Virus record (IMG/VR): IMGVR_UViG_3300046674_000373
Location: 32,166 to 96,165 of that record
DNA: 64,000 bases
Source of the DNA: a virus
Strand: one strand, 5' to 3'
Part shown: one piece after another, positions 37,317 through 64,000 of the stretch
How positions within the stretch are numbered: the stretch's first letter is position 1
Layout of the letters: each line of letters begins with the position of its first letter
The notes under the pieces: model-generated
What the model was told of the DNA's origin: nothing
Database searches by the model: none
What the model saw: only the letters and a program-made list of their open reading frames with translations
Translations under genes and position numbers: made by a program

Positions 37317-38828
37317 TTATTCGCCGGTGTGCGGGCGCCACTTGGCGTTCGACGGCAGGATGTTCTTGATGAAGCCGTGGTGCTTCGGCTTGGTGATGCG
37401 CAGGTAGCCGAACAGGAACTGGAACCACGAGTACTGCGGCATCATGCCGATACCGAAGGGCAGCGGGATCTTGGTCATCGGCTGGAACTGGCGCCAGCCG
37501 ATCGCATCCGCGCCCTGGTCGAGGTTCAGGAGCGGGACCATCACCGTGCCCGGGATATCGCGGTTCACGTCGGTGAAGGTGGTCGTCGCGCCGTTGCACT
37601 TGATGACCTTGACCAGGCGGAAATCGCTCGCGGCGTTGGTGCCGTCCTGGCGCGAACGGTACACCGCGTAGCCGCTCTCGGTGCCAGCGGTCGAGCGGGT
37701 GATGGTCAGGACGACCTTCTTGCCAGCTGCGACGGTTACCTGCGTGGTCTTGACGATCTCGGTCTGGCCTTCGCCTTTGGAGCCGATGGCCGCCACGGCG
37801 TAGTAGTAGCCGCCGGCGCGCGGCGCGCTGAACTGCGACGAGGCGTCCGAGGCGGTACCGTCAGCCGTCACGCCTTGCGGCTTGAAGGCGGCGTTGGCGA
37901 CCGCCAGCGAGGCGTTGTGCACTTCGAACGGGTACACCATCGGGTTTTCTTCATCGTGGATGAAGGTGTCCATGTTGGTGCGCAGCACGCCGTTGGTCAG
38001 GCGGATGCCTTCGACGTGACCGCCGATGACCGGGGTGTTGTTGCCGTTCGGGAGCCAGCGGAACGACGGGTCCAGGTACTTGTTCAGGTCGTTCTGGACC
38101 GAGTTCGGCAGGAAGATATCGCTCGAGCGGCCCCACGAACCGTAGCGGCTCACCGCCACGTTAATCCGCGAGATCGCATCGACGTCGTCCAGGCGCTGGC
38201 CTTGCAGGTCAACGACGTGGTCGTCGCTCACGTTGCCGGCGGCAACCTCGTTTTCGAGCTGCGTGAACACGCCGTCGAACTGGGTCGGCGAGGCGGCCGC
38301 GTTGCCGTGGTAGCCCAGGTAGTTCGCGTCGGTCAGCAGCTGCAGGGCGCCATTGCGCTCTTCCAGCGAGATCGGCTCGGCCAGGTTCTTGCCGATGGTC
38401 AGGACGTAGCCGACCTGACGCAGGGTCATCAGGAACTTGACCAAGCCAACTTCGCGCTGGTACTCGCCCTGCGCGCCGCGCACTTGGCCCATCTGGGTAT
38501 TGGTCGATCCGCCCAGGAAGCCGCCGATCGAGGTCTGGCGGCTGTATTCGTCGACGATGTTGGTCGCGCTGGTCGATTGCAGGCGATTCATCAGGGTGAA
38601 GTGCTTGTTCTCCTGGATGGTCGTCTTCATCGTGGTATCCAGCGACTGGATACCGAGTGCGCCGCCACCGGTCAGGGTGGAGACATCGGTTTGATAGCTG
38701 CTGGCTTCGAGGGCCTTGGTCAGATCCGAGATCATGTCCAGACCGCCGCCCTGCGAGCCACCCAGAATCGGGTTGGCACCACCGGGATTCAGACCAGCGA
38801 ACTGTGCTGCGAGAGTTTGAGCGTCCAT
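37317..38828 (-). CDS. major capsid protein
   Basis: 503 aa after protease and scaffold; GGGALGIQSLD, QFDG, VVDLQG. Confidence 0.85.
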   Translation of the reverse strand: MDAQTLAAQFAGLNPGGANPILGGSQGGGLDMISDLTKALEASSYQTDVSTLTGGGALGIQSLDTTMKTTIQENKHFTLMNRLQSTSATNIVDEYSRQTSIGGFLGGSTNTQMGQVRGAQGEYQREVGLVKFLMTLRQVGYVLTIGKNLAEPISLEERNGALQLLTDANYLGYHGNAAASPTQFDGVFTQLENEVAAGNVSDDHVVDLQGQRLDDVDAISRINVAVSRYGSWGRSSDIFLPNSVQNDLNKYLDPSFRWLPNGNNTPVIGGHVEGIRLTNGVLRTNMDTFIHDEENPMVYPFEVHNASLAVANAAFKPQGVTADGTASDASSQFSAPRAGGYYYAVAAIGSKGEGQTEIVKTTQVTVAAGKKVVLTITRSTAGTESGYAVYRSRQDGTNAASDFRLVKVIKCNGATTTFTDVNRDIPGTVMVPLLNLDQGADAIGWRQFQPMTKIPLPFGIGMMPQYSWFQFLFGYLRITKPKHHGFIKNILPSNAKWRPHTGE

Positions 38829-38884: not shown

Positions 38885-39526
38885 TTAGGAAAGGGCGACC
38901 TTCTGGATCAGAGCCGGGTCGATCGGCGCGTTGTGCCGGCGGCACACGTCGATGGTGCGCAGCTCGGCACCGCTGATCTTGTCGTTCGCGTAGGCGGTCT
39001 GCGCCTTGGCGAAGAACTCGTCGATGGTCAGCTTGCCGTCTTCGGCGCCGCCGGACTTGGCGAGCGTGGCACCAGCCGCGGGCTTCTCGACCGCCATCAG
39101 CATGGCCTTGCGGCCCGCGCCTTGGCCGCCCAGCTTGGCGACGGTTTCCTGGAGCGACTTGATCAGCTGGCCCTGCTTGGCGATGGTCGAGGTCAGGCCG
39201 CCGAGTGCCTTGGTAAGCACGCTGCCGTGTTCGCCCACCTGGTCCTGCAGCGACTTGATGATCTCGGTCGCATCCACGACATCGACCGGCTTGCCGTCCG
39301 GGCCGGTAACGGTCAGCGACTTGGTCAGGTCGGCATCCTTGCCGTCCTGGTCATCGTCATCCTCGCTCTTGGTGCTTGCGTCTTCGATAGTCTGGTCGTC
39401 CGGCGCGGTGCCCTTCTTGTCATCGACGGCCGGCGCCGACTTGATCAGGTTGTCCGCGTTGGCTTCCTCGTCGTTGATCGCCTTCAGCAGCTCGGCGAAG
39501 TCGCTCTTTCCTTCAGTAGTGCTCAT
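38885..39526 (-). CDS. capsid scaffolding protein
   Basis: Acidic/coiled-coil, between protease and MCP, seven hydrophobic-x-K-A/S motifs. Confidence 0.7.
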   Translation of the reverse strand: MSTTEGKSDFAELLKAINDEEANADNLIKSAPAVDDKKGTAPDDQTIEDASTKSEDDDDQDGKDADLTKSLTVTGPDGKPVDVVDATEIIKSLQDQVGEHGSVLTKALGGLTSTIAKQGQLIKSLQETVAKLGGQGAGRKAMLMAVEKPAAGATLAKSGGAEDGKLTIDEFFAKAQTAYANDKISGAELRTIDVCRRHNAPIDPALIQKVALS

Positions 39527-40936: not shown

Positions 40937-43900
40937 TCAGAACATCGCTCCTTGCCCGCTTTGGGCTTCCACCCGCCGCGCATTAATCGCTCCGGCTACA
41001 CCGGAATCGTCAATACCGTCCAAAGGCGACGCCATCAAATCCTTGAGGGCGTACTTTTTCTCCAGCCGATCACGCGAACGGCGCTCCTCGGCATGGTCGC
41101 CCACCAGGTCGATCAGTTCGACGCCCTGCTTCTGCCCCAGACGGTGGATGCGGGCGTTGCGCTGGCTGTGCGTCTTGGCGGTCTGGCTGATATCGTGCTG
41201 AATCAGGAACTGGCCGGATTGCAGGTTCATGCCGACGGCGCCTGCATCCGACGCGATCAGGATATCGGCTTTGGCCTCGCCCGATTCCGGATTGAACATG
41301 CGCCGCTTCTTGTCCTTCTCCTTGGCGCTGTCCGAGCCGGTTATGACCACGACGCGCTTGCCGGCCGTCTCCATCGCCGCCTTGTACTGCTCGACGCTGT
41401 CGCGATTGCGCGCGAAGATGACGCCCTGTTTGCCCGGGCGATCGGCCACCATCTGCACCGCGCGCGCCACCTTGGCGTTGTCCGGGTGCGAGTTGATGAT
41501 CCGGTTGACCGCCGAGGACTTCAGGATCCCAATGGACTTCTGGAGCGCGGCCGCGACCTTCTCGTGATCGGACTCCGGCACGCCGGCGAACGAATTGGGC
41601 GAGATCGCGCGCGCCGCTTCGACGTCGACCTTGCCGGCGCGCTGCGCCAGCCGGGCGCGCGCCAGGTGCTTGTCGAGCTCGCCCAGGGCCTGCGTCTGGC
41701 CGGGCGACAGCGACACCTTCTCCTGCTTGCGACTCACCGCGACGTCCGGCGTGATCGAGGTCGGGAACACGTAGCGCGCCATCTCGCGCTGCAGCGCCTG
41801 CTTGCTGGCGATCGTGTCGGCGCCGTAGCGGCGCATGAAGGCGGCGCGGTCCTCGTAGCGCTCGGGGTCGAGCTTCTGGAGCATCGAATGGATTTCGCTC
41901 GGGTCGTTCTTGACCGGGTCGCCAGAGGCGTAGACGTGGTAGGGCGTGTGGTGGCCCACCGCCTCCAGCACGTTCGACAGGCTCGAATTCTCCTTGCCGG
42001 CGCGGTTCAGGGTGTCGTGCGCCTCGTCGATGAAGGAAGCGTCAAAGTTGATACCCTCGGCCGCCATCACGCTGGCCACCCAGTCGCGCCGCTCCGTGGT
42101 GCTCATGGCGGCCACCTTCGACACCATGGCCGCCTCGTCGACGCCGGCCTGTTTGGACCCCAGGTGGACCATGTCGTCGCGGAAGGACTGGTGCGTCATG
42201 ACGCAGATGTGGGTATCCGGGTCCTTGTAGGCCGCGATCCGCTCGGCCTGCGACGCGCCCGGCTGGATATGGGCCTTGAACTTGCCAGCCTCCAGCAGGC
42301 GCAGCGCCTCGCCGTTGAACTGGCCCTGCACGATCGAGGGCACCATCATGATCGAGCGCTTGACCGTGCCGAGGCCCGACAGGTGCGCGTGCGCGCCCAG
42401 CATCATGTTGGTCTTGCCGCTGCCGGCGCCGGCCGCCAGCGCCATGCGCTTGTTCGCGGCCAGCAGCTTGATCGCGCGCTGCTGCGCCGCGTACTTGCCG
42501 GACATGGAGACGCCCCACAGTTTCGTGGGCTGGCCCGGTTTGAAGTTGGCGCCGACGTGCTCCATCATCCCGGCGATCTGGCGCTCCGCGGCATGGCCCA
42601 GCGTATGCCGCTCGTCGGGCGCCAGCCCGGCCGGCTGGCCGCCGGCGGTGGCCGCCGGGGCTTCTTCCGACGAGAAAAATCCCATCTGTGCCTGGTCGAA
42701 TGCCGCCTGCTGCTCTTTTGCGGCACCGATCTTGTCCGCTATGCCGCCGGCCGCATACTTGCCGCCGCTGCGGTTGCGCAAGCCATCGATCAGCGCCTTG
42801 TCTTTCGCCATTCGCGAATCGCGAGCGTCCGGGTCGACCGCGTCGAGGTGATCCAGGTTGTTGCGGATCACCCGCTTGCCCAGCTTGATCGGCGCGTCCG
42901 GATTCAGCTTGTTGTGCGCATCGACGAAGGTGGCCGCCATCTTGGAGCGGATCACGTCCTGCACGGCCTCGTAGGCCTTCTCGTTGCTGCCCATCGTCTT
43001 GAGGTACTTGCTCCAGGTGAGTGAGCTCGAGCTCAGCTTCTCGGCCAGGTTGTCGCGCGTGGCGCGCCAATCCTTCCATTCCGGGTTCGGCACCGTGTCG
43101 CCGAACATATCGGTCGTCTCCTTCTCCGGCTCGGCGCCGTTCAGCTGCTCCAGTTCGGCGCGCATCTTGCCGGCATCGGGCGATTCCTTGGCGATGTGGC
43201 GGTAGAAGTGCTCGCGCAGCGCCGCCTGGTCCTTGGGCGTGAGCTCCCCGATCTGCTTGTAGGCGGCAGTGCCCTCCGGCGTCTCGGCCAGCGCCCGGTG
43301 CAGCGCATCGACCGACTTCTGGTCGACCTTGAACTTCTGGCGGTTCAGCGTGGTTCGCTCGCCGCCCAGCTGGGCCACGTGCTCATCCGCGTACTTCTCG
43401 AAGGTGTCGCCCAGCGCGTCGGCGCGCTGCTGGTTGCCGTCGGCATCCTTCAGGGGTGCGACGGCGTCGAGCGCCTGGCGGTACTCCTCGGCCCGGCCGG
43501 CGCCGACGCGCTGGAAGAAGTCGGCCGACTGGACATCGGCCAGAATGTCGGCCGGGGCGTCGCCATCCGCCGTGCGCGCACCGATGTAGGTGCGCAGCGC
43601 CGCTTGCAGGTCGGGCCCGGGCGCGAACGGCTGCGCCAGGCGCTCAGCGACGCCCGGCTTCACATTCATCACCAGGTCAGGGCGATTCGCCACGCCAAGC
43701 GGCAGCCAGCCATCCTCGTCGTGCTCGCCGCGGATGATCGCCAGGTTGCGGCGGACCTGCTGTACGTCCTCGCGATTGACCGGCTTTGCCAGCCGCTCCA
43801 TGCCGGCCGGGGTCACGGTCAGGAAGGTGTCGCCGCCGACCTTCTCGAGCGAATAGTCACCCGTTTTCAGGCCGATCGCGCGCACCTGCTGGATTGCCTG

Positions 43901-45469
43901 CTCCACGGCCGTCTTGCCGAGCGAGACCTGCAGCGGCCCGGCGCCGGGCGCTTTCATGGCCAGCACCAGCGCGGCATTGGCCTCCATCTCGCCCATGGCT
44001 TGGCCGAGGATCCGCTGGGCGTCGCCGATGGCGGCGCGCCGGCGCGCGTTCAGTTCCTGCGCCACTGCGAGGTCCGCACCGTTCCGCGCCTCGGTAGATA
44101 GCTCGATCGCGCTGGCGGCCTCCTGCAGGTCGCGCGCCTTTTTCAGCGCCTCGGTGGTGGTGGCGGTGTAGTGGTTGACGTGCCAGTCCTGGATGCCGGC
44201 CGCAACATGCTCGACCTCCTCAGGCGCGAGATCGGCGTGCACGCGCCGCGCCAGCACCTGCGCCGCGCCAGCGATGCCGAGCACGTCAACCACCGAGCGG
44301 TCTACCAGCGCCTCGCCGCCGACGGCCAGCGCCAGCGCGTTGATGCTGTTGTAGGCGCCCACGCCGATATGGCCGCCCAGGGTCTCCGTCGGGCTGCCGC
44401 CGGCGATCTTGCCGACCTCGGACAGGAAGGCTGACGTCTGGACGGTGCGCAGGTCGTTCGCGAGGTCCTCGGCGACGTCTCCGCCGTCGGACACCTCGAG
44501 CACGAACGCCTTCGGCTCGGCCGCGCCGCGGTCCACATCGGCATGCGCGGCGCGCGCCAGGCGCTCGATCTCGGCCAGGCGCTTGCCTTCCTTGACCAGC
44601 TCCAGCGCATCCTTGGCCGACAGCAGCGAGGCATCGGCGCTGGGCGCGGCCGGCTCCTTGATGCCGGCCAGCTCCTGCTTGATCAGATTGCCCGCGTCGC
44701 CGCGCGCGAACGCGGCCTGGCGCTGCTCTTCCGTCAGGCCAGCCAGCTTGACTTGCTGAGCCTCGGCGGCCAGCACATCCTGGGACAGGCCCGCATCGGT
44801 GGCGCGGCCCTTGTAATCGGCCTGGAAACCCAGTCCGGCACCAGGTGGCTTGATGGGGTCCAGGTCCTGCACGGACAGGTGCTCGGGGGCGTCCGAGAAC
44901 AGCGGCAGCTCTCCTACGCCCGCATCGGCGCGCGCCGCCGCGTCGTTGACCAACTTCTCGCGGCTTTGCTGGATCACTTCCTTGGCGCGCTTGAGCAACT
45001 GGCGGTGGTGGCGGTCCTTGACCTTGGCAAGCGCCTTCTCGGACAGGTGCGCGTAGTCCTGCTCGGGGAAGGTGAGGTCCGATTCATCCCAGCCGGCCTT
45101 CTTGGCGACCGCCTCGATGACGCTGCGTTCGGCGGCGCGGCGCTGGTTCTGGATATCCTTGCGCGCGTCCTGCTTGGCGCCGTGCACGCCGGAGGCCTTG
45201 TCGGCGGCGATCTGTTCCTTCTTCTTGGCGCGCTGCTCGGCCGCTTTGCCCTTGGCCTCCTCCTTGTAGTCGGCGTGCGATTTCACACCGCGCAGACGTA
45301 GATGGTTCAGCGAACCACCGGCGCCGCCGATCACCACAGCCGACCCATCCTGCTGCGGCTGGATCAGCACCGGCTGGCCCTTGCCGATTCCGGCTGGATG
45401 TACGGTAATCCAGTGGGAACCCTCTGGTACGGAAGACGCTTTTAGGAGTAGGCGTGGCTCGATCGTCAT
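40937..45469 (-). CDS. 1510-aa protein with C-terminal SNF2/SF2 helicase (putative virion cargo, DarB-like role)
   Basis: AGAGSGKT, FIDEAH, SGDPVKND, SDAGAVGMNLQ, QRNARIHRLGQ; located in head module. Confidence 0.8.
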   Translation of the reverse strand: MTIEPRLLLKASSVPEGSHWITVHPAGIGKGQPVLIQPQQDGSAVVIGGAGGSLNHLRLRGVKSHADYKEEAKGKAAEQRAKKKEQIAADKASGVHGAKQDARKDIQNQRRAAERSVIEAVAKKAGWDESDLTFPEQDYAHLSEKALAKVKDRHHRQLLKRAKEVIQQSREKLVNDAAARADAGVGELPLFSDAPEHLSVQDLDPIKPPGAGLGFQADYKGRATDAGLSQDVLAAEAQQVKLAGLTEEQRQAAFARGDAGNLIKQELAGIKEPAAPSADASLLSAKDALELVKEGKRLAEIERLARAAHADVDRGAAEPKAFVLEVSDGGDVAEDLANDLRTVQTSAFLSEVGKIAGGSPTETLGGHIGVGAYNSINALALAVGGEALVDRSVVDVLGIAGAAQVLARRVHADLAPEEVEHVAAGIQDWHVNHYTATTTEALKKARDLQEAASAIELSTEARNGADLAVAQELNARRRAAIGDAQRILGQAMGEMEANAALVLAMKAPGAGPLQVSLGKTAVEQAIQQVRAIGLKTGDYSLEKVGGDTFLTVTPAGMERLAKPVNREDVQQVRRNLAIIRGEHDEDGWLPLGVANRPDLVMNVKPGVAERLAQPFAPGPDLQAALRTYIGARTADGDAPADILADVQSADFFQRVGAGRAEEYRQALDAVAPLKDADGNQQRADALGDTFEKYADEHVAQLGGERTTLNRQKFKVDQKSVDALHRALAETPEGTAAYKQIGELTPKDQAALREHFYRHIAKESPDAGKMRAELEQLNGAEPEKETTDMFGDTVPNPEWKDWRATRDNLAEKLSSSSLTWSKYLKTMGSNEKAYEAVQDVIRSKMAATFVDAHNKLNPDAPIKLGKRVIRNNLDHLDAVDPDARDSRMAKDKALIDGLRNRSGGKYAAGGIADKIGAAKEQQAAFDQAQMGFFSSEEAPAATAGGQPAGLAPDERHTLGHAAERQIAGMMEHVGANFKPGQPTKLWGVSMSGKYAAQQRAIKLLAANKRMALAAGAGSGKTNMMLGAHAHLSGLGTVKRSIMMVPSIVQGQFNGEALRLLEAGKFKAHIQPGASQAERIAAYKDPDTHICVMTHQSFRDDMVHLGSKQAGVDEAAMVSKVAAMSTTERRDWVASVMAAEGINFDASFIDEAHDTLNRAGKENSSLSNVLEAVGHHTPYHVYASGDPVKNDPSEIHSMLQKLDPERYEDRAAFMRRYGADTIASKQALQREMARYVFPTSITPDVAVSRKQEKVSLSPGQTQALGELDKHLARARLAQRAGKVDVEAARAISPNSFAGVPESDHEKVAAALQKSIGILKSSAVNRIINSHPDNAKVARAVQMVADRPGKQGVIFARNRDSVEQYKAAMETAGKRVVVITGSDSAKEKDKKRRMFNPESGEAKADILIASDAGAVGMNLQSGQFLIQHDISQTAKTHSQRNARIHRLGQKQGVELIDLVGDHAEERRSRDRLEKKYALKDLMASPLDGIDDSGVAGAINARRVEAQSGQGAMF

Positions 45470-57741: not shown

Positions 57742-58581
57742 CTAAAAGCACAGCGATGGCTGGAATGGCTCATCCAGCATCGCATTCTTTTTAATGTTAT
57801 CTAGGGCCGGCATCAGCCGAAGATTACTGAGTGCCCACGCGCGCTTGAAATCGAGATCCGATGGTTTCGTGTAATTGAAGGCATCGAGCGGAATGCGGTG
57901 GTCGATATGAAGTGCCCCAGACATGAAATCGGCCCATGTGAACCCAGTGGGGATTGTTTTTCTAAGGTGTTTCTCCAGGGCCTCAACCGAGTACCCGAGA
58001 AGGTCGAAGGTCCGTCCCGCCTTCGACTCGCGACCTTTACGCTTTAACGTCTGGTGAAGAGCCGTCCGCATTCTGGACGTCAGTGCGAATTTAGGATCAG
58101 TTCGCCGCCTGTTGGACATCGCCGTGCGAGTTCTCTCTCTGGCGAATAAAGGGCGTACAGTTTCCCTAAGCATCACAGCACAACCACAGGAAGCCGAGTC
58201 TCCTCGGAGCAGTAAGCTGCCAACTGCTGTGAATTCGGAGCCGCAATCGCAAATACACGACCAGGTAGCGTTATTGTGCTTGCTGCTGCCAGAACGTCCT
58301 ATGACGAGCAATTTTCCAAACCGTCGCCCGGTCAATATCTTGGCCGTTTGTGGCCCTGTATTTTTACCAGTCAACGCAGCAGCTTCACGATGCAAGCAGC
58401 CGCAGCTTTTCACGGTTCCACTTTTGGGCCCGTCGCTGCGTATCGACTTGCCTTTCACCCCACAGTCGCAATCGAAAATCCAGTTTCTTGGGTTCGCTTC
58501 GCTACGACGGACCGCGATCAGCCTTCCGAATTTCTGACCCGTAAGATCAATTCTATTCTTTCGAGCGGCAACGACTGACAT
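57742..58581 (-). CDS. HNH homing endonuclease
   Basis: Two LTGxxFGxL..CxCG modules; LHIDHRIP..NLRLM..NIKK; lower GC. Confidence 0.85.
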   Translation of the reverse strand: MSVVAARKNRIDLTGQKFGRLIAVRRSEANPRNWIFDCDCGVKGKSIRSDGPKSGTVKSCGCLHREAAALTGKNTGPQTAKILTGRRFGKLLVIGRSGSSKHNNATWSCICDCGSEFTAVGSLLLRGDSASCGCAVMLRETVRPLFARERTRTAMSNRRRTDPKFALTSRMRTALHQTLKRKGRESKAGRTFDLLGYSVEALEKHLRKTIPTGFTWADFMSGALHIDHRIPLDAFNYTKPSDLDFKRAWALSNLRLMPALDNIKKNAMLDEPFQPSLCF

Positions 58582-58631
58582 TGCCGCGCAGTGCGCGACG
58601 ACAGCTTTCGTTGCCACACGCACGCGCGTCG

Positions 58632-58997
58632 TCAAAGCAGTGCACCTTGGCGCCCGCCACCGCGTCCCGAATACGGCCGCGTGGGCTGCAGCTTCGCCAT
58701 GATTCCCCAAACGGCCGCATACGCGTCGTGGAGCCTGTTGTTCTTCACCGAGTCCTTAAAATTCGGATATCCAATGGCGCGCACCTGATCGGCCATTGCC
58801 GCGGCCACCTCCTGGCGCGGGATCAGCGCGCGGAACAGGTAGTCGCGCTCGGGGCGCTTCTCGACCGCTGCGTTCGGGAACACCGACTCGATATCGCCCT
58901 TGCGGCGTGCGCGGACCAGCAGCATGTCGCCAGTATTTAGGTCCTGGCCGGTCGGTTCGACAATGCTCAAAAAAGCAGAATTCAGACAAACCCACAT
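58632..58997 (-). CDS. hypothetical protein
   Basis: SD GGAGG; MWVCLNSAFLSIV..LLVRARRKGDIE..DYLFRA..YPNFK. Confidence 0.7.
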   Translation of the reverse strand: MWVCLNSAFLSIVEPTGQDLNTGDMLLVRARRKGDIESVFPNAAVEKRPERDYLFRALIPRQEVAAAMADQVRAIGYPNFKDSVKNNRLHDAYAAVWGIMAKLQPTRPYSGRGGGRQGALL

Positions 58998-59059: not shown

Positions 59060-59818
59060 CTATATGTAGCGGAGCCATTCGAGGGGCTCGGTGAGGACAA
59101 GTTTGTTGTGCTTGGCGCCGTTCAGTTTCGCGGGGATGACCTGGCAATTGGCAGCCACGTGCAGCCCGCTCGCCAAGTCCGCCATCAGAGGGATCATATG
59201 GTCAGCCTCCCATTTGAGGCCGGTCGTGGCGCGGCGCCGGCGCGCCAGATCGGCAGCCTCGATCCACACGAACTGGTCGAATTCGCCAAACCACGGTGGC
59301 ACGGCCTTCTTCTTTCGAGCACGGCGGTGCGCGTGCGCAGCACGCTTTTTATCTGGATTCGCCTCTCTCCAACGACGCACCTTGGCTACAATCTGCTGGC
59401 TGTTTTCGATCCGTTTTTTGCGCCGGCTTTCCAGTATCCGGTCTTTGTTCGCCTCGAAGTATTTTCGGCGAGCCTCGGCGAGAGCGTCTTTGTTCGCTGC
59501 ACGCCACTGTCGGTGACGTTCGGTGACTGCTGCGCGATTTTTCTGTTCGTACTGGCGCGCGTATTCTTTTCGCTGCGCTACATTGGCACGATACTTCGCC
59601 TTATCGAACTCGGCCAACCGCTCGCGGTTTTCTTCGCGATATCTCCGCGCATACTCCGCCGCTTCTTCTCGGTTGGATTCATACCGTGCAGAGCGGCATG
59701 CAAAACATTGGTTGTTCCCGACGTATCGCTCTGCAACATGGCCACTTGGGCAAGGAACCCCAGTGAAGAACTTCTTCAGCCCTTGCTCTTTAGCTTCCGA
59801 TCGCGTGATGAGGTTCAC
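59060..59818 (-). CDS. HNH endonuclease
   Basis: FFTGVPCPSGH..CFAC; basic helical repeats; WEADHMIPL..GLHVAANCQVI..NGAKHN. Confidence 0.85.
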   Translation of the reverse strand: MNLITRSEAKEQGLKKFFTGVPCPSGHVAERYVGNNQCFACRSARYESNREEAAEYARRYREENRERLAEFDKAKYRANVAQRKEYARQYEQKNRAAVTERHRQWRAANKDALAEARRKYFEANKDRILESRRKKRIENSQQIVAKVRRWREANPDKKRAAHAHRRARKKKAVPPWFGEFDQFVWIEAADLARRRRATTGLKWEADHMIPLMADLASGLHVAANCQVIPAKLNGAKHNKLVLTEPLEWLRYI

Positions 59819-60564
59819 TTTTGCGGCGTCGGGCCAGCGCCTATCGCTTCAGCGATCGGCCAGTCGGCGGGACCGTTCAATTGCTCGTAAAGGTGACCTC
59901 GCGGGCAGAGCAAAACAGCTTGGGACTCCCATCCGCACTGGGTAGGGTCTCCTCCAACGCGGCGCGCGCGATACATTCTGGCGACAGATGTCGTCCGTTC
60001 GTAATCGCCGATCCAACCAGTAATTTGAACGCGAAGACCACTTTCCTCGAAAGCTTCCTTCAATGCGTTTCCTTGCAGCGATAGTCCATCCTCCATCGAG
60101 CCTTTGGGCCACGAGGCATCGTACCCCCCAAAACCGTTAGTTGGGCAAACGAGCCAGACGCGACCATCAGGTTCCTCAATCACCACGCCCGAACTGGCCT
60201 TCTTCCCAAGCGGGACATGCAGCGCCGGCTCATGCAGGTCATGCATAATGCCATCCTCGTAGTTCCACCCTTCAATCGTCTTCGGATGATCCTTCCAGCT
60301 GCGCAGCGCGACCTTGTTCAGCGACAGCGGCGCGTCGCCGTTCGGCACGAACGTGGCCACCGCATCAGGCGACGTCCAGGTCGAGGGGGCGGATGCGTGG
60401 TGCGGCAGCTCGACCAGGACAGGCTTCCCATTTTCGCCATGGCGGGGATGGTGGTAGGAATTCGGCAGGCTGACTTCGCCGCGCTCGTACGGACGCACGT
60501 AGGTGCCGTCGGCGCGCACGTGGCCCTTGACGTGGGCCTTAGCGAGATCGTCTTGGAGCTCCAT
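59815..60564 (-). CDS. Nudix hydrolase
   Basis: WPKGSMEDGLSLQGNALKEAFEESGL Nudix box. Confidence 0.85.
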   Translation of the reverse strand: MELQDDLAKAHVKGHVRADGTYVRPYERGEVSLPNSYHHPRHGENGKPVLVELPHHASAPSTWTSPDAVATFVPNGDAPLSLNKVALRSWKDHPKTIEGWNYEDGIMHDLHEPALHVPLGKKASSGVVIEEPDGRVWLVCPTNGFGGYDASWPKGSMEDGLSLQGNALKEAFEESGLRVQITGWIGDYERTTSVARMYRARRVGGDPTQCGWESQAVLLCPRGHLYEQLNGPADWPIAEAIGAGPTPQK

Positions 60565-61052
60565 CAAGCCGCCCCATCGAGACCGAGCAGCTGGTTGGCG
60601 AACTCTGCCACGGCCGTGTCGAGCGCCTTCTGGAGCGCGGGGAAGCTGTCCTCGGTTTGGTGCTGGCGCATCAGCTCGCCGATCTTGCTGGCGAAGATCA
60701 TGAACGCGTCACGCACCGCCAGGCGCAGCTCGCCGTCGATGTGCAGCGCCAGCGCGAGGTGGTGGCCGAGATGGTCGGGCGTGTTCCAGGGACCGCGGCT
60801 GTAGGGCGTCGTGTCCAGGCCGGCGCCGATGAACAGCTCGTTCATCCGGAAGCACTCGTTCGTGAGCCAAGCCATCAGGTCCTTGTGGCTGGACTGGCCG
60901 TAGCGCCGGATCAGGTCGGCCGCGAACTGGCGCACGATCGCACTCACGGCCTCGGTCGAGTTCAACCAGGGCGGCGAGTTGTCGGCGTTCGGCCCCTTGA
61001 CCCCCGAGTCATCGGTGGCCATGCGCTCCATGTTCTTTTCTTGTTCGCTCAT
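60564..61052 (-). CDS. hypothetical protein between ART and Nudix
   Basis: Coupled ORF. Confidence 0.65.
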   Translation of the reverse strand: MSEQEKNMERMATDDSGVKGPNADNSPPWLNSTEAVSAIVRQFAADLIRRYGQSSHKDLMAWLTNECFRMNELFIGAGLDTTPYSRGPWNTPDHLGHHLALALHIDGELRLAVRDAFMIFASKIGELMRQHQTEDSFPALQKALDTAVAEFANQLLGLDGAA

Positions 61053-61055
61053 GAA

Positions 61056-64000
61056 TTAGTCCTCGTGCGGCAGGGCCATCAGGTCAACAATTGTTTTCGG
61101 GCCGTGGCTGTGACCTTTGCTGTCCACGAAGTTCTTGTGATGGGTGACGTTCAATACGGCATATCTTACATTATTTTTGATGATTATTTCCCGTTCGGAA
61201 GACCCGAAGTTTGAGAAAGACGTGGCGTGCAGACCTTTTACACCTTTGCCGACGTGGATTTTTAGCCAAGTCTTGTGGCCGGAAAAAGCTGGGGATGACC
61301 CGAAGGACGACGACTGGAACGACCCGTCCTGAATAACAGCGCCCGTGACCGATTTGTAGGTGTCCTCGCCCACGCCGATGCCGCGCCAGAGGATGGTGCC
61401 CTCCGGGATGTCGATCGCGGCTTTTTTGAAGGCTTTCACCATCGGCTGGGCGTTGTGGTAGGCACCCGAGGCCGTGTCACCCGACCGGAGCGCCTGGTTC
61501 CAGTTCGCGTAGGCGCTGCCGGTATAGGCCTTGCACGCCGTCTGCTCGGCCGAGGTCAGCGCCTGGAACGTAGCCTTGCAAGCGTTCTTGAACTCGATCA
61601 GCTTCGGGCTGACGTTTTCCCACTGTTCCTCGAACGCCCCGTCGTCCGGCGACGGCAGGCCGGCCGCTGCCGACTTGCTCAGCACCAGGTAGTCCGCGGC
61701 CTTCGCGGCGTGCGCCTTGAACTTCGTGTAGTCGACCGGCGTGAAGTCGGCCGCCAGCGACATCGCCGCGGCGGAATAGCTCTGGGTGAACGACCCGTTC
61801 TGAACGGTCTTGTAGGTCGCCTTCGTCTGCGCCTCGAGCTCGGCGGTGACCTGCTTGAAATACTCCTTGATCTCGCCGGCCGGGTGCTGCGCGAACGGCA
61901 TCTTGACGCCGGTCTTCTGCCCGGTCGCCTTGTCGATCTGGTCGAAGGTCAGGTTCTGGACCGGCTCCGGTTCTTTGTGGTGAATCGCCGCGTCGTAGAT
62001 CGACTGCCCGGCCTGGTTGTTGGCCTCGTTGACGTGCTGGACCGACGACTTCCAGGTGCTCGTCGGGCCCTGGTTGCCGTTCATGAAGAAGTTGGGCGGG
62101 GTCGGGATCGCGTCCGCGTGGAATCCCTTCGGCGGGACTTTGATCTTAGCCCACTGCACGCCGAACTTCTCACCGGTCTCGACGATGCGCTCGCCCGGCT
62201 TGAGCCGCACCCACGAGGTGCCCTTGGCGACGCCCTGCGCCGCTTTCGGGTACTTCGCCAGCAGGTCGGCCTTGCGCGCGATCAGGGTGACGGCCAGCGC
62301 CTTCTTCGCTGCAGCGTCGCCCGGGCCGAACTGTTCGACCAGGCCCTTGATCTGTTCGTCGGTGACGGCCGCCACCTTCGCCACCGAGGCGGCGATATCG
62401 GCCTGGGTCATCTTCCCGAAGATCGACGCGGCCTGCGGATTTTTCGACGCATCCCGAAGCGTATCGAGATCGGTAACGTGCGGGCCGAACTCGCCAGGTT
62501 TCTTCTTGCTGCCCTGCGCGCGGTACTCGAGCGAGCCGCCGGCATCGACCCGCACGGCCTTGCCGTCGGCGCCGATCTGCAGGTTGTCGTAGCCCAGGCC
62601 GACCACATCCCAGTTGCCCAGCCACGCGTCGACCGCGAAGCCGCCCTGGGCATCCGGTGTCTTTGCCAGCTGCGCCGGGGTCTTGCCTTTCTTGACCTCG
62701 ACCCACTTGCTCGCGATGCCGATCTTGCCGCCCTTGGTGACCAGCATCGCGCGCTGGCTGGCCAGGCCCGCGGCCGCGTACAGCTTCGCGGCCAGCACCT
62801 CGGACTTGGCGATGTCCTCGTTTTCTGGGAACTTGCAGTAATACTCGGTGCCGTCCGGTGCCTTGAACTTGCCGCCCGGGTTCGAGCCGCCCTGCGGGCC
62901 GATCTGCTGCCAGTCGTCCATGGACGGAACAGCACCAGGCGTCGCGGCGGGCTTCTGGGGCTTCGGAGCGGGTGCAGGCTTTGGCCCCACGGCGGGGGCG
63001 CTGGCCGCGCCGGCGACCGGCTTGTATCCCTTCCCGGTCTTCTCCTTGATCAGCTTTTCCTTGGCCGCCTGAGCTGACGCTGCGCTGCCGAAATCTTTCT
63101 CCGTCGTCTGCTGCGCCTTGCCGATCTTCCCGTACTTGGTGACCAGTTTCGAACCGTGCACCGAGACCGACCACTGCTTGTTGTGGCCGTCTTCGGTGTG
63201 GTGGAACACGAGCTCCGGGCCCGCTGGAGAGGCGGCCGCCGGCTCATCCTGCTTGTGCCAGTGCCCATCCTTGAACACGAGCGTGCCGCCGTCGGCGGCT
63301 GGCTTGGTGTCGCCGTCCTTGGGGCCCGGCTCGGGCGTGGCGCCACCGTGCTGCTTGTTGAGCTTCGCCACGACATCGTGGTTCAGCACGTCGTGCCACT
63401 GCTCGCTGTCGGCCACCTTGAACTGCCAGCCGTGCTCTGCGTTGGCGTCCTTCTTGTACTCGTGGCCGTCCATGTGCACCGAGCCTGACTGGCTCGCTTC
63501 GGGTGTCACAGTGGTCTGCTGCGTCGGGCTCGACTGTGACGTTTGCGCCGGCGCGCCCTCCTTCAGCGCCGCGATCGCCGCCTGCGCGACCAGCGCGAGC
63601 TTCTTGTTGTAGGTGTTCTTGCCCCATGTCATCGCCTCGAGCGCGGCCACGTCGCCGGCCTCGGCAGCGGTCTTGATTGCGGCCAGCTTCTTGTTGACCG
63701 TCGCAGCGTTTGTGTTCGACGTGGGTAGCTGCAGCGTGTCCCAGGGGATTTGGGCGAGCAGATCCTTTGCCGTCGGCTTCGCGGGCGCTCCGGACGGTTC
63801 AGCCTTCGGCGTCTTCGCAGCGACAGCCTTCTTCGCTTTTTGCGCTGGCGTGGGGGCAGGCGCGGGCGCCGGAGGCGTAGCAGGCTCCTCTGCAACGGCC
63901 GGCGCTGCGCCCTGGAGCGCGTCGATCAGGTCGAGGTGGAAATGCAGCAGCTGCTTGCTGTTCTGGCTCTTCCCCTGCCAGGCCGCGCTGCCGTCGTTGG
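61056..64000 (-). CDS. multidomain protein: WGR + HipA/PI3K-like kinase + R-S-E ADP-ribosyltransferase (5' end outside window)
   Basis: Frame open to window edge; HNKQWSV..YGKIG..KTGKGY (WGR); GSNPGG, YYCK, KSEV, DAWLGNWD..DN, VDAG (kinase); LWRG, FQSSS, ERE (ART). Confidence 0.8.
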   Translation of the reverse strand, partial: NDGSAAWQGKSQNSKQLLHFHLDLIDALQGAAPAVAEEPATPPAPAPAPTPAQKAKKAVAAKTPKAEPSGAPAKPTAKDLLAQIPWDTLQLPTSNTNAATVNKKLAAIKTAAEAGDVAALEAMTWGKNTYNKKLALVAQAAIAALKEGAPAQTSQSSPTQQTTVTPEASQSGSVHMDGHEYKKDANAEHGWQFKVADSEQWHDVLNHDVVAKLNKQHGGATPEPGPKDGDTKPAADGGTLVFKDGHWHKQDEPAAASPAGPELVFHHTEDGHNKQWSVSVHGSKLVTKYGKIGKAQQTTEKDFGSAASAQAAKEKLIKEKTGKGYKPVAGAASAPAVGPKPAPAPKPQKPAATPGAVPSMDDWQQIGPQGGSNPGGKFKAPDGTEYYCKFPENEDIAKSEVLAAKLYAAAGLASQRAMLVTKGGKIGIASKWVEVKKGKTPAQLAKTPDAQGGFAVDAWLGNWDVVGLGYDNLQIGADGKAVRVDAGGSLEYRAQGSKKKPGEFGPHVTDLDTLRDASKNPQAASIFGKMTQADIAASVAKVAAVTDEQIKGLVEQFGPGDAAAKKALAVTLIARKADLLAKYPKAAQGVAKGTSWVRLKPGERIVETGEKFGVQWAKIKVPPKGFHADAIPTPPNFFMNGNQGPTSTWKSSVQHVNEANNQAGQSIYDAAIHHKEPEPVQNLTFDQIDKATGQKTGVKMPFAQHPAGEIKEYFKQVTAELEAQTKATYKTVQNGSFTQSYSAAAMSLAADFTPVDYTKFKAHAAKAADYLVLSKSAAAGLPSPDDGAFEEQWENVSPKLIEFKNACKATFQALTSAEQTACKAYTGSAYANWNQALRSGDTASGAYHNAQPMVKAFKKAAIDIPEGTILWRGIGVGEDTYKSVTGAVIQDGSFQSSSFGSSPAFSGHKTWLKIHVGKGVKGLHATSFSNFGSSEREIIIKNNVRYAVLNVTHHKNFVDSKGHSHGPKTIVDLMALPHED

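Follow-up and report, generated by a model that had tools for sequence, protein, structure and literature searches.

Candidate head-packaged kinase-fold/ADP-ribosyltransferase and Nudix proteins, encoded with an acidic partner, in a Dolphis/Toucanavirus-like myovirus

The stretch of DNA analyzed here (the window) is the last 64 kb of the 96,165-bp IMG/VR virus record IMGVR_UViG_3300046674_000373. Its closing part carries, on the minus strand, a block of three genes that encode a large multidomain protein (the big protein) with a kinase-fold domain and an ADP-ribosyltransferase (ART) domain, an acidic protein of 162 amino acids (aa), and a Nudix protein. An earlier note, made from the sequence alone, had described three genes with these domains, which open reading frames (ORFs) and Pfam confirm, and its individual domain calls (WGR, a HipA/PI3K-like kinase with Lys/Glu/Asp motifs, an R-S-ExE ART and Nudix) are likewise upheld. 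The features of the block are listed below; P0001 denotes the part of the big protein encoded in the window, in which residue i corresponds to residue i+224 of the full protein.

61056 to 64000, minus strand: putative polyvalent cargo gene (the big gene), its 3' four-fifths, 980 of 1,204 codons (ORF and reading across the record junction)
63204 to 64000, minus strand: window part of the N-terminal variable region (repeats, linkers and hairpin-like motifs)
63015 to 63203, minus strand: WGR domain, P0001 266-328 (PF05406, PDB 2ra8)
62139 to 62966, minus strand: atypical kinase-fold domain, P0001 345-620 (AlphaFold model and structural matches)
61578 to 62138, minus strand: middle region running into the ART (Alt-like PHROG profile)
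61059 to 61577, minus strand: C-terminal R-S-ExE ART domain (PF03496)
60564 to 61052, minus strand: 162-aa acidic, all-helical partner protein (ORF and family position in related loci)
59815 to 60567, minus strand: Nudix protein, 250 aa, with leader, N-domain and Nudix fold (PF00293)
59902 to 60198, minus strand: Nudix fold, residues 124-222 (PF00293)
59060 to 59818, minus strand: HNH/endonuclease VII-like gene overlapping the Nudix stop codon (GTGA; phrog_1035, E 9e-18)

The big polypeptide had been given in the earlier note as at least 980 aa. The 980-aa frame does exist (61056-63998, minus strand, open at its 5' end and closing the window), but its length is an artefact of the window end. 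The gene resumes at G000:C1:128-797, with its start at C1:797, and the whole protein, read across the junction, has 1,204 aa. A 127-bp direct terminal repeat at both ends of the record (window 64000 and G000:C1:1-127) lies inside the big gene, so that the contig ends are best read not as physical ends but as a cut made by assembly, in a genome that is circular or permuted circularly. Such ends fit two relatives, Mecenats66 and Touem01, which are both reported to be headful-packaging myoviruses, the latter predicted to be temperate (PMC9503643, PMC11256456). Within the block, a Shine-Dalgarno sequence (GAGGA) sits 8 nt ahead of the ATG of the small gene, the small and Nudix genes meet in TGATG and the Nudix and HNH genes in GTGA, and a sequence scan found no terminator-like sites on the minus strand between the block genes. 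From the sequence, co-transcription of the three genes is plausible; a scan for sigma-70 promoters and terminators gave results indistinguishable from those with shuffled sequences.

Only two domains of the big protein are recognized by Pfam at E<=0.1. The first, WGR (PF05406, P0001 266-328), matches with E 1e-12 and 48.3 bits against a cut-off of 22, and also matches the WGR of PDB 2ra8 (E 9e-8). Nucleic-acid binding is to our knowledge established for the WGR domains of PARPs and not for those of bacteria or phages, and WGR is found in only about one-third of the homologous big proteins, which weakens the earlier description of this enzyme as nucleic-acid-anchored. The N-terminal ~480 residues contain helical repeats (GD...G.N(T/S)..KK), Pro/Ala-rich linkers and hairpin-like G(H/R)WHK motifs. 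The second Pfam domain, ADPrib_exo_Tox (PF03496), covers P0001 808-963 (E 2e-13; 50.8 bits against a cut-off of 23.4), and a profile built from its homologues matches the VIP2, Vis, C3 and iota toxins (E 1e-10 to 1e-4). The Alt-like ART profile phrog_802 aligns to residues 687-884 (E 3e-9), that is, upstream of the Pfam ART, and the middle region ("MID") is kept in many homologues. The ART motifs of the window protein are the Arg in LWRG, SSS and EREI; among homologues, ExE and the third Ser are present in 53 of 53 and the Arg in 42 of 53, with Lys in the remaining 11.

The best-conserved portion of the big protein is the kinase-like stretch at P0001 345-620, for which Pfam, NCBIfam and PADLOC return zero matches. 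An AlphaFold model, folded with 30 homologues, has a predicted local distance difference test score (pLDDT) of 92.4 and a predicted template modeling score (pTM) of 0.86. The earlier proposal that this stretch would model as a kinase is borne out by Foldseek, in which the best match is CtkA of H. pylori (E 2e-6). With VIA-align, for which the background lies at Z ~8, CtkA scores Z 17 with a root-mean-square deviation of 3.3-3.7 Å across 213-220 residues, followed by CotH kinase (Z 14.3), HipA/HipT (Z ~12), LepB (Z 11.7), actin-fragmin kinase (Z 10) and VPS34/PI3K (Z ~9). On the evidence of the model, the central domain can be assigned confidently to a CtkA/CotH/HipA-like bilobal kinase fold, within which its sequence marks it as an undescribed family. 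The motifs are a G-loop (GGSNPGG), Lys in YCKF, Glu in SEVL, DAWLGNWD, DNL and RVDAGG, and the Lys, the Glu, the D/N/D of DAWLGNWD, the DN and the Asp of RVDAGG are invariant in 77 of 77 aligned homologous domains; the roles of these residues, including that of the catalytic-base Asp, are assigned from the order of secondary structure elements and not from residue-level superposition. The invariance of the motif residues in both kinase and ART domains suggests that both are under the selection expected of working enzymes.

Membership of the kinase domain in the HipA_C or CotH Pfam families was considered and rejected, as no family model of Pfam, NCBIfam or PADLOC matches. A HipBA-type toxin-antitoxin system was rejected as well, both because the neighbors are a 162-aa helical protein and a Nudix protein, with no helix-turn-helix antitoxin, and because the domain forms only a part of a 1,204-aa polypeptide. 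The kinase has at least 448 close homologues, mostly on 91-97-kb contigs, and its relatives fall into 4,686 clusters (50% identity, E<=1e-3), nearly all within proteins of 1,000-7,000 aa. In some database proteins (P0125) the domain is present in 2-5 copies per chain.

Isolated relatives of the phage are known from several hosts: the Pseudomonas phages Jeremy, Dolphis and Touem01, E. coli phage ECML-606-1, Yersinia phage fHe-Yen8-01, Aeromonas phage ST4 and Morganella phage Mecenats66. Their records label the big gene "ADP-ribosyltransferase" or "hypothetical," and a literature search on these phages, and on CtkA or WGR with phage ART, found no description of the block. Jeremy and ECML-606-1, the latter with a big protein of 2,253 aa, share the order of big, ~160-aa and Nudix genes, and the full block is found in about 56 of the 75 usable loci among 79 taken from viral contigs, a conservation of gene neighborhood that the earlier note had named as a check on its proposal. 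Conservation differs among the products. The Nudix protein is 67% identical to that of Jeremy and 43% identical to that of ECML-606-1, whereas the small protein is 26% identical to its Jeremy counterpart and unrecognizable pairwise against that of ECML-606-1.

The small ORF is nonetheless present in nearly all loci, beginning at or over the stop codon of the big gene, its starts having been chosen beside that codon. Forty-seven of the small proteins co-align as one divergent family with the motifs (Y/W)LG(D/N), F.G, WN.P..LG and a C-terminal LLG. The 162-aa protein has no Pfam, NCBIfam or PADLOC match; it is modeled confidently as a five-helix bundle (pLDDT 87), for which Foldseek is empty at E<=1e-3 and the top VIA-align score, Z 7.9 to TetR ligand domains, is at noise level for helical bundles. 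Its isoelectric point (pI) is 5.1, that of the window ART domain is 9.0, and the same opposition runs through the homologues, with median pI values of 4.85 for the small proteins and 8.8 for the ART domains.

Co-variation among the parts of the block was measured in 53 loci from all-versus-all normalized BLAST scores for the kinase, the last 220 residues of the big protein (the ART), the small protein and the Nudix domain. The median scores are 0.12 for the ART and 0.10 for the small protein, as against 0.45 for the kinase and 0.61 for the Nudix domain. In partial Mantel tests, the small protein co-varies with the ART when kinase and Nudix are controlled for (r 0.53, p<=0.0005), but not with the Nudix domain (r -0.01, not significant), while the Nudix domain co-varies with the kinase (r 0.53, p<=0.0005) and not with the ART (r -0.06, not significant). 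The first of these relationships, together with the opposite charges, suggests that recombination shifts the ART and its small neighbor as one cassette, with breakpoints on both sides. In sequence terms, the pattern is that of a toxin plus a cognate binding protein. The earlier note had suggested the 162-aa protein as a possible inhibitor, and the idea of an action on the big protein gains from the ART-specific co-variation, from the pairing of an acidic protein with a basic ART, and from the lack of a packaging-type leader on the small protein (see below).

On sequence grounds, the small protein may serve either as an inhibitor or as a chaperone of the ART. A role in folding or loading the ART, as a chaperone, or in activating it, as a cofactor, is a possibility to be taken seriously, if less probable than inhibition: co-variation and charge complementarity show a specific interaction and not its sign, and T4 Alt needs no immunity protein. 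Weighing against this role, the small ORF comes directly after a variable, C-terminal domain of toxin type, with rapid evolution of both (median normalized scores 0.10-0.12), as is characteristic of toxin-immunity cassettes, those of MuF toxins among them (PMC5576092).

The Nudix protein matches PF00293 with E 9e-8 (32.6 bits against a cut-off of 21.1) and consists of a leader, the motif HVKGHVRADGTYVRPY, a conserved N-domain of ~70 residues that always accompanies this Nudix, and the Nudix fold. Its Nudix box is a variant, G-x5-L-x7-K-E-x2-E-E-x-G-L (in the window G-x5-L-x7-K-E-A-F-E-E-S-G-L), that also occurs in phages Jeremy and ECML-606-1. Compared with GX5EX7REUXEEXGU, in an alignment to PDB 1sjy, the three metal-binding Glu are retained, whereas Leu and Lys take the place of the Glu/Arg pair. 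Among solved sequences, the closest belong to Nudix enzymes of broad specificity, DR1025 of Deinococcus and a diadenosine tetraphosphate (Ap4A) hydrolase. Direct fusions of Nudix and kinase that lack an ART are found in dozens of proteins of ~500 aa. In eight loci (L030, L033, L052, L061, L067, L069, L074 and L077) a Nudix-kinase fusion is encoded in place of the plain Nudix protein behind the big gene; as the big protein bears a kinase as well, these phages carry two copies of the kinase domain.

These observations argue, on sequence grounds, that the Nudix protein pairs with the kinase and not with the ART. The earlier note had cast it as an eraser or nucleotide-clearing enzyme. That it erases the ADP-ribosyl mark written by the ART is an idea to which the nearness of the genes lends something, as does the fact that some Nudix enzymes trim protein-linked ADP-ribose to phosphoribose. 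This role now appears very improbable, given the missing co-variation with the ART, the dozens of kinase-Nudix fusions without one, and a loading leader shared by Nudix and writer, by which both would be delivered together. Another possibility, tentative at present, is that the kinase fold is not a protein kinase and forms with the Nudix enzyme a two-step pathway acting on a nucleotide, a signal derived from NAD, or an RNA or DNA end, which would, for example, destroy or alter a host immune signal or cap, the ART and its partner being a separate swappable cassette. Fusions in both orders, many of them without an ART, and the co-variation of Nudix with kinase rather than ART agree with such a pathway, and the fold neighbors of the kinase include enzymes other than protein kinases (LepB/PI kinases, N-acetylhexosamine kinase and APH). 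Phage Nudix enzymes have moreover been argued mainly to counter signals derived from ADP-ribose (PMC9503650). On the other side, the nearest fold neighbors, CtkA, CotH and HipA, are protein Ser/Thr/Tyr kinases, and the co-variation possibly reflects vertical descent alone.

How such proteins might reach a host is indicated by their N-termini. The motif [LIVMF]-x-K-[AST] was searched in the first 60 aa, with its frequency elsewhere in the same proteins as the expectation. It is present in 85% of the complete big proteins (23% expected), usually at positions 8-20 behind a hydrophobic run, and in 80% of the Nudix proteins (15% expected), usually at positions 4-12, but in only 4% of the small proteins. 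In this phage, sites of this motif are distributed as follows.

Outside the window, minus strand: big protein leader, LYIFKS, motif at residues 12-15
Nudix gene, minus strand: Nudix leader, DLAKA, motif at residues 8-11
1,510-aa helicase-type protein gene, minus strand: leader, PRLLLKAS, motif at residues 8-11
37317 to 38828, minus strand: major capsid protein gene, with a site (DLTKA, residues 36-39) that ends a short propeptide
38885 to 39526, minus strand: candidate scaffold, 213 aa, acidic, between the protease and capsid genes, with eight L-x-K-(A/S) sites (shuffle mean 1.3, p<=2e-4)
Head protease gene: several sites

Head cargo of phage T4 carries capsid-targeting sequences, and cleavage there takes place at L/I-x-E sites. 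Because the present motif saturates the candidate scaffold, ends the propeptide of the capsid protein, and ends the leaders of unrelated enzymes, in the manner of L/I-x-E in T4, L-x-K|(A/S) is read as the probable prohead-protease site of this phage group and the leader as a probable tag for loading. At the borders between domains, L-x-K-(A/S) sites inside the chain show no enrichment beyond conserved intradomain positions, and the idea that the big protein is a polyprotein was rejected.

Independent support for head loading comes from fusions of the kinase and Nudix domains with head proteins. Single chains join a portal protein (PF06381), Nudix, kinase and ART (P0365); minor capsid protein 2 (PF06152), Nudix, kinase and ART (P0368); and Nudix, kinase and MuF (P0312). 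In another phage lineage, in loci that lack the Nudix block, Phage_Mu_F stands at the N-terminus of six of the six kinase proteins checked; MuF proteins are head-internal. Packaging of an ART and of a Nudix enzyme in myoviruses has precedent (PMC9503650). Leader and fusions together lend weight to the idea, already present in the earlier note, of virion-delivered enzymes for host takeover or anti-defense.

Several points count against delivery from the head and against parts of the scheme built on it. The leader motif is short, and the evidence that connects it with the protease is statistical. A search of the literature found no virion proteomics, cleavage data or enzyme assay for any member of these families. 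Methyltransferase and small genes precede the big gene on the same strand, and a late promoter cannot be defined; the 300 nt ahead of the big gene belong to ORFs for small membrane proteins, and a k-mer search with loose criteria for a late-promoter motif there yielded noise only. The fold of the 162-aa protein is, as modeled, a generic helical bundle from which no function can be read, its co-variation with the ART could partly be physical linkage, and that of kinase and Nudix could be mere vertical descent and not joint function.

Some of these points would suit proteins that are not cargo at all and act only inside the producing cell, like ModA and ModB of T4, taking over the host within one and the same infection, the N-terminal motif having another role or none. 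The long co-directional array with DNA methyltransferases upstream and a motif of just four residues are in keeping with this, which we nevertheless regard as unlikely. Two unrelated proteins show enrichment of the leader at a particular position, and the small protein encoded between them lacks it; the same motif saturates the scaffold candidate, and this kinase and this Nudix recur in fusions with portal, MuF and minor capsid proteins.

We therefore favor, with moderate confidence, the interpretation that the block equips a ~96-kb Dolphis/Toucanavirus-like myovirus with a polyvalent effector system packaged in the head, in which kinase and ART modify the host, the Nudix protein is co-packaged, and the acidic protein is not packaged. 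According to this interpretation, the 1,204-aa protein would be made along with the downstream packaging and head genes of the same strand and loaded into the prohead by a hydrophobic leader of ~15 residues ending in the probable protease site L-x-K|(A/S). The leader would be trimmed there and the protein expelled with the DNA into the next host, where the CtkA/HipA-like kinase and the Alt/VIP2-type arginine-ART would covalently modify host targets, with the WGR domain and N-terminal repeats as putative accessory binding modules. The Nudix protein shares the leader and would for that reason be co-packaged, as the predicted functional partner of the kinase. The 162-aa acidic protein, which has no leader, would remain in the producing cell and bind the basic ART, as an immunity-like inhibitor or as a chaperone, until loading.

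The surroundings of the block agree with a place among the structural genes in the following order on one strand: big, small, Nudix, HNH, a 133-aa ORF, HNH, large terminase, portal, the 1,510-aa helicase-type protein, protease, candidate scaffold and major capsid protein. Two HNH/endonuclease VII-like genes (57742-58710 and 59060-59818, minus strand) thus lie between the Nudix and large terminase genes, and Jeremy and ECML-606-1 have different genes at their site; the gene at 59060-59818 probably entered this interval as a mobile insertion. The large terminase is long, 878 aa, with ~225 additional N-terminal residues. About 3 kb upstream of the big gene (L084), a 181-aa HD_4 protein (PF13328, E 1e-10; G000:C1:3616-4161, minus strand) with an HD domain like that of SpoT/RelA-type hydrolases adjoins genes for a C5 DNA methyltransferase and for ParB-like methyltransferases.

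The 1,510-aa protein (40937-45469, minus strand), encoded between the portal and head-protease genes, has a SNF2/DEAD helicase half at residues 994-1445 and a 990-aa N-terminal half without assignment. With its leader it is a candidate second packaged protein, recalling DarB of phage P1. Elsewhere, the Nudix family of the window is fused to such helicases (P0363, P0341 and P0350). Just behind the leader of the Nudix protein, residues 12-30 (~60478-60534) hold a basic motif, (H/K)VKGYTR.DGT.V.PH, that has a counterpart at the N-terminus of the big-protein family (KIAHQ.GY.L..GRWHK / V.IPGYTR.DG..V..H); this element could belong to the loading signal or serve to contact DNA.

The same enzymes recur in plant pathogens, namely in Pantoea and in the Pseudomonas syringae complex. 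Pantoea stewartii and P. ananatis encode a 697-aa "NUDIX hydrolase" with an N-terminal R-S-ExE ART (motifs FRG, TSVST and EHEI), followed by the same kinase domain and then the same N-domain and Nudix. Full-length relatives occur in Pseudomonas cerasi, P. fragariae, P. tremae and P. syringae pv. cilantro. The P. cerasi kinase is 38% identical to that of the window (E 1e-40), and its N-domain and Nudix part are 42% identical to the window Nudix protein (E 2e-42), with the motifs retained. Upstream of the ~700-aa gene in P. cerasi, P. fragariae and P. tremae (L085, L086 and L089), the sequence GGAACC-N15-ACACTCA differs by one mismatch from the hrp-box consensus, with a chance expectation of about 7e-4 per locus; a strict hrp-box pattern gave zero matches. 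The proteins of these three loci have a Ser-rich N-terminus (MINPVKHNFSHLGFSN...). Site and N-terminus fit a type III effector of the HopAG1 type, for which an N-terminal ART in addition to a C-terminal Nudix has been described (PMC9963460). NCBIfam and the protein atlas did not return the name HopAG1 for the Pantoea/Pseudomonas fusion, and the identity is a fit of architecture, organism and a one-mismatch hrp-box-like site rather than of a name. No biochemical work on the kinase-like part of HopAG1 was found in the literature.

A wider reading of these relationships, doubtful as yet, is that an undescribed pair of kinase fold and Nudix, and not the ART, makes up the conserved core, a pair that is loaded into capsids on MuF, portal or leader-tagged carriers by phages and delivered by type III secretion by plant pathogens. 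If so, bacteria and plants would have in common a deeply conserved target, possibly a nucleotide, an immune signal derived from NAD or an RNA end, and ART and acidic partner would ride on that carrier as a toxin-immunity cassette that can be exchanged independently.

Injected phage proteins decide the first minutes of an infection, and few have been characterized besides T4 Alt and the Dar proteins of P1. The block described here is very common, its kinase domain has no family model, and no bench data on it were found. Handles for experiments are a leader that may serve for loading and cleavage, a protein predicted to partner the ART specifically, and a kinase-Nudix pair with a counterpart in plant pathogens, so that work on either the phage block or the plant-pathogen effector would inform the other. 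The cultured relatives Dolphis, Jeremy and Touem01 (Pseudomonas) and ECML-606-1 (E. coli) make it testable.

By kind, the system belongs with polyvalent proteins, T4 Alt and MuF toxins, all of which are known. New are the CtkA/HipA-like kinases, a family so far unmodeled, their constant association with one particular Nudix, the modular cassette of ART and small protein, the lysine-type leader, and a kinase-Nudix core held in common with a type III effector. Polyvalent proteins (PMC5512222) combine unrelated enzymatic domains, such as kinase and ART, with binding modules in one chain, adjoin packaging and head genes, and are predicted to enter the host with the DNA. Like them, the big protein unites a kinase fold, ART and WGR in one chain, is followed on its own strand by the genes for terminase, portal, protease and capsid proteins, and is predicted to enter with the DNA. 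The kinase described there is a Ser/Thr/Tyr-kinase derivative without a C-lobe, found mainly in prophages of Verrucomicrobia, Chlamydia and Bacteroidetes, whereas that of the big protein has a CtkA/CotH/HipA-like fold with the signature DAWLGNWD...DN...RVDAGG; WGR and PI3K are absent from the text of that study, and fixed small-partner and Nudix genes lie outside its description.

The analogy with T4 Alt drawn in the earlier note holds, in that the R-S-ExE ART has Alt-like PHROG matches. Alt is an R-S-E ART with an N-terminal leader that ends at a head-protease site and is injected with the DNA, and the same is inferred for the big protein. The sites differ, however (L/I-x-E in T4 and L-x-K-(A/S) here), Alt has no kinase, WGR, dedicated small partner or linked Nudix, and packaging is proven for Alt only, being predicted from sequence for the present proteins. 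In MuF toxins (PMC5576092), a large head-associated protein ends in a variable toxin domain, an ART in 14% of cases, and is followed by a small ORF proposed to confer immunity. The variable C-terminal ART of the big protein is likewise followed by a small ORF that evolves fast and co-varies with it and for which immunity is predicted. MuF itself (PF04233) is absent from the window protein in searches with Pfam and, for the N-terminal piece, NCBIfam, and the conserved kinase and Nudix partner are additional. CtkA, CotH and HipA/HipT, the best structural matches, share with the phage kinase the Gly-loop, Lys, Glu and Asp/Asn positions. The phage kinase has no sequence-level Pfam match, no HipB/HipS partner and no HipA N-terminal subdomain, and, unlike these enzymes, is embedded in phage proteins of 1,000-7,000 aa. 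The HopAG1-type effector, finally, has the same three enzyme types as the phage block, but as a single ~700-aa chain in the order ART, kinase and Nudix instead of separate genes, without WGR, leader or small partner, and with delivery by type III secretion into plant cells in place of the injection from the head predicted for the phage proteins.

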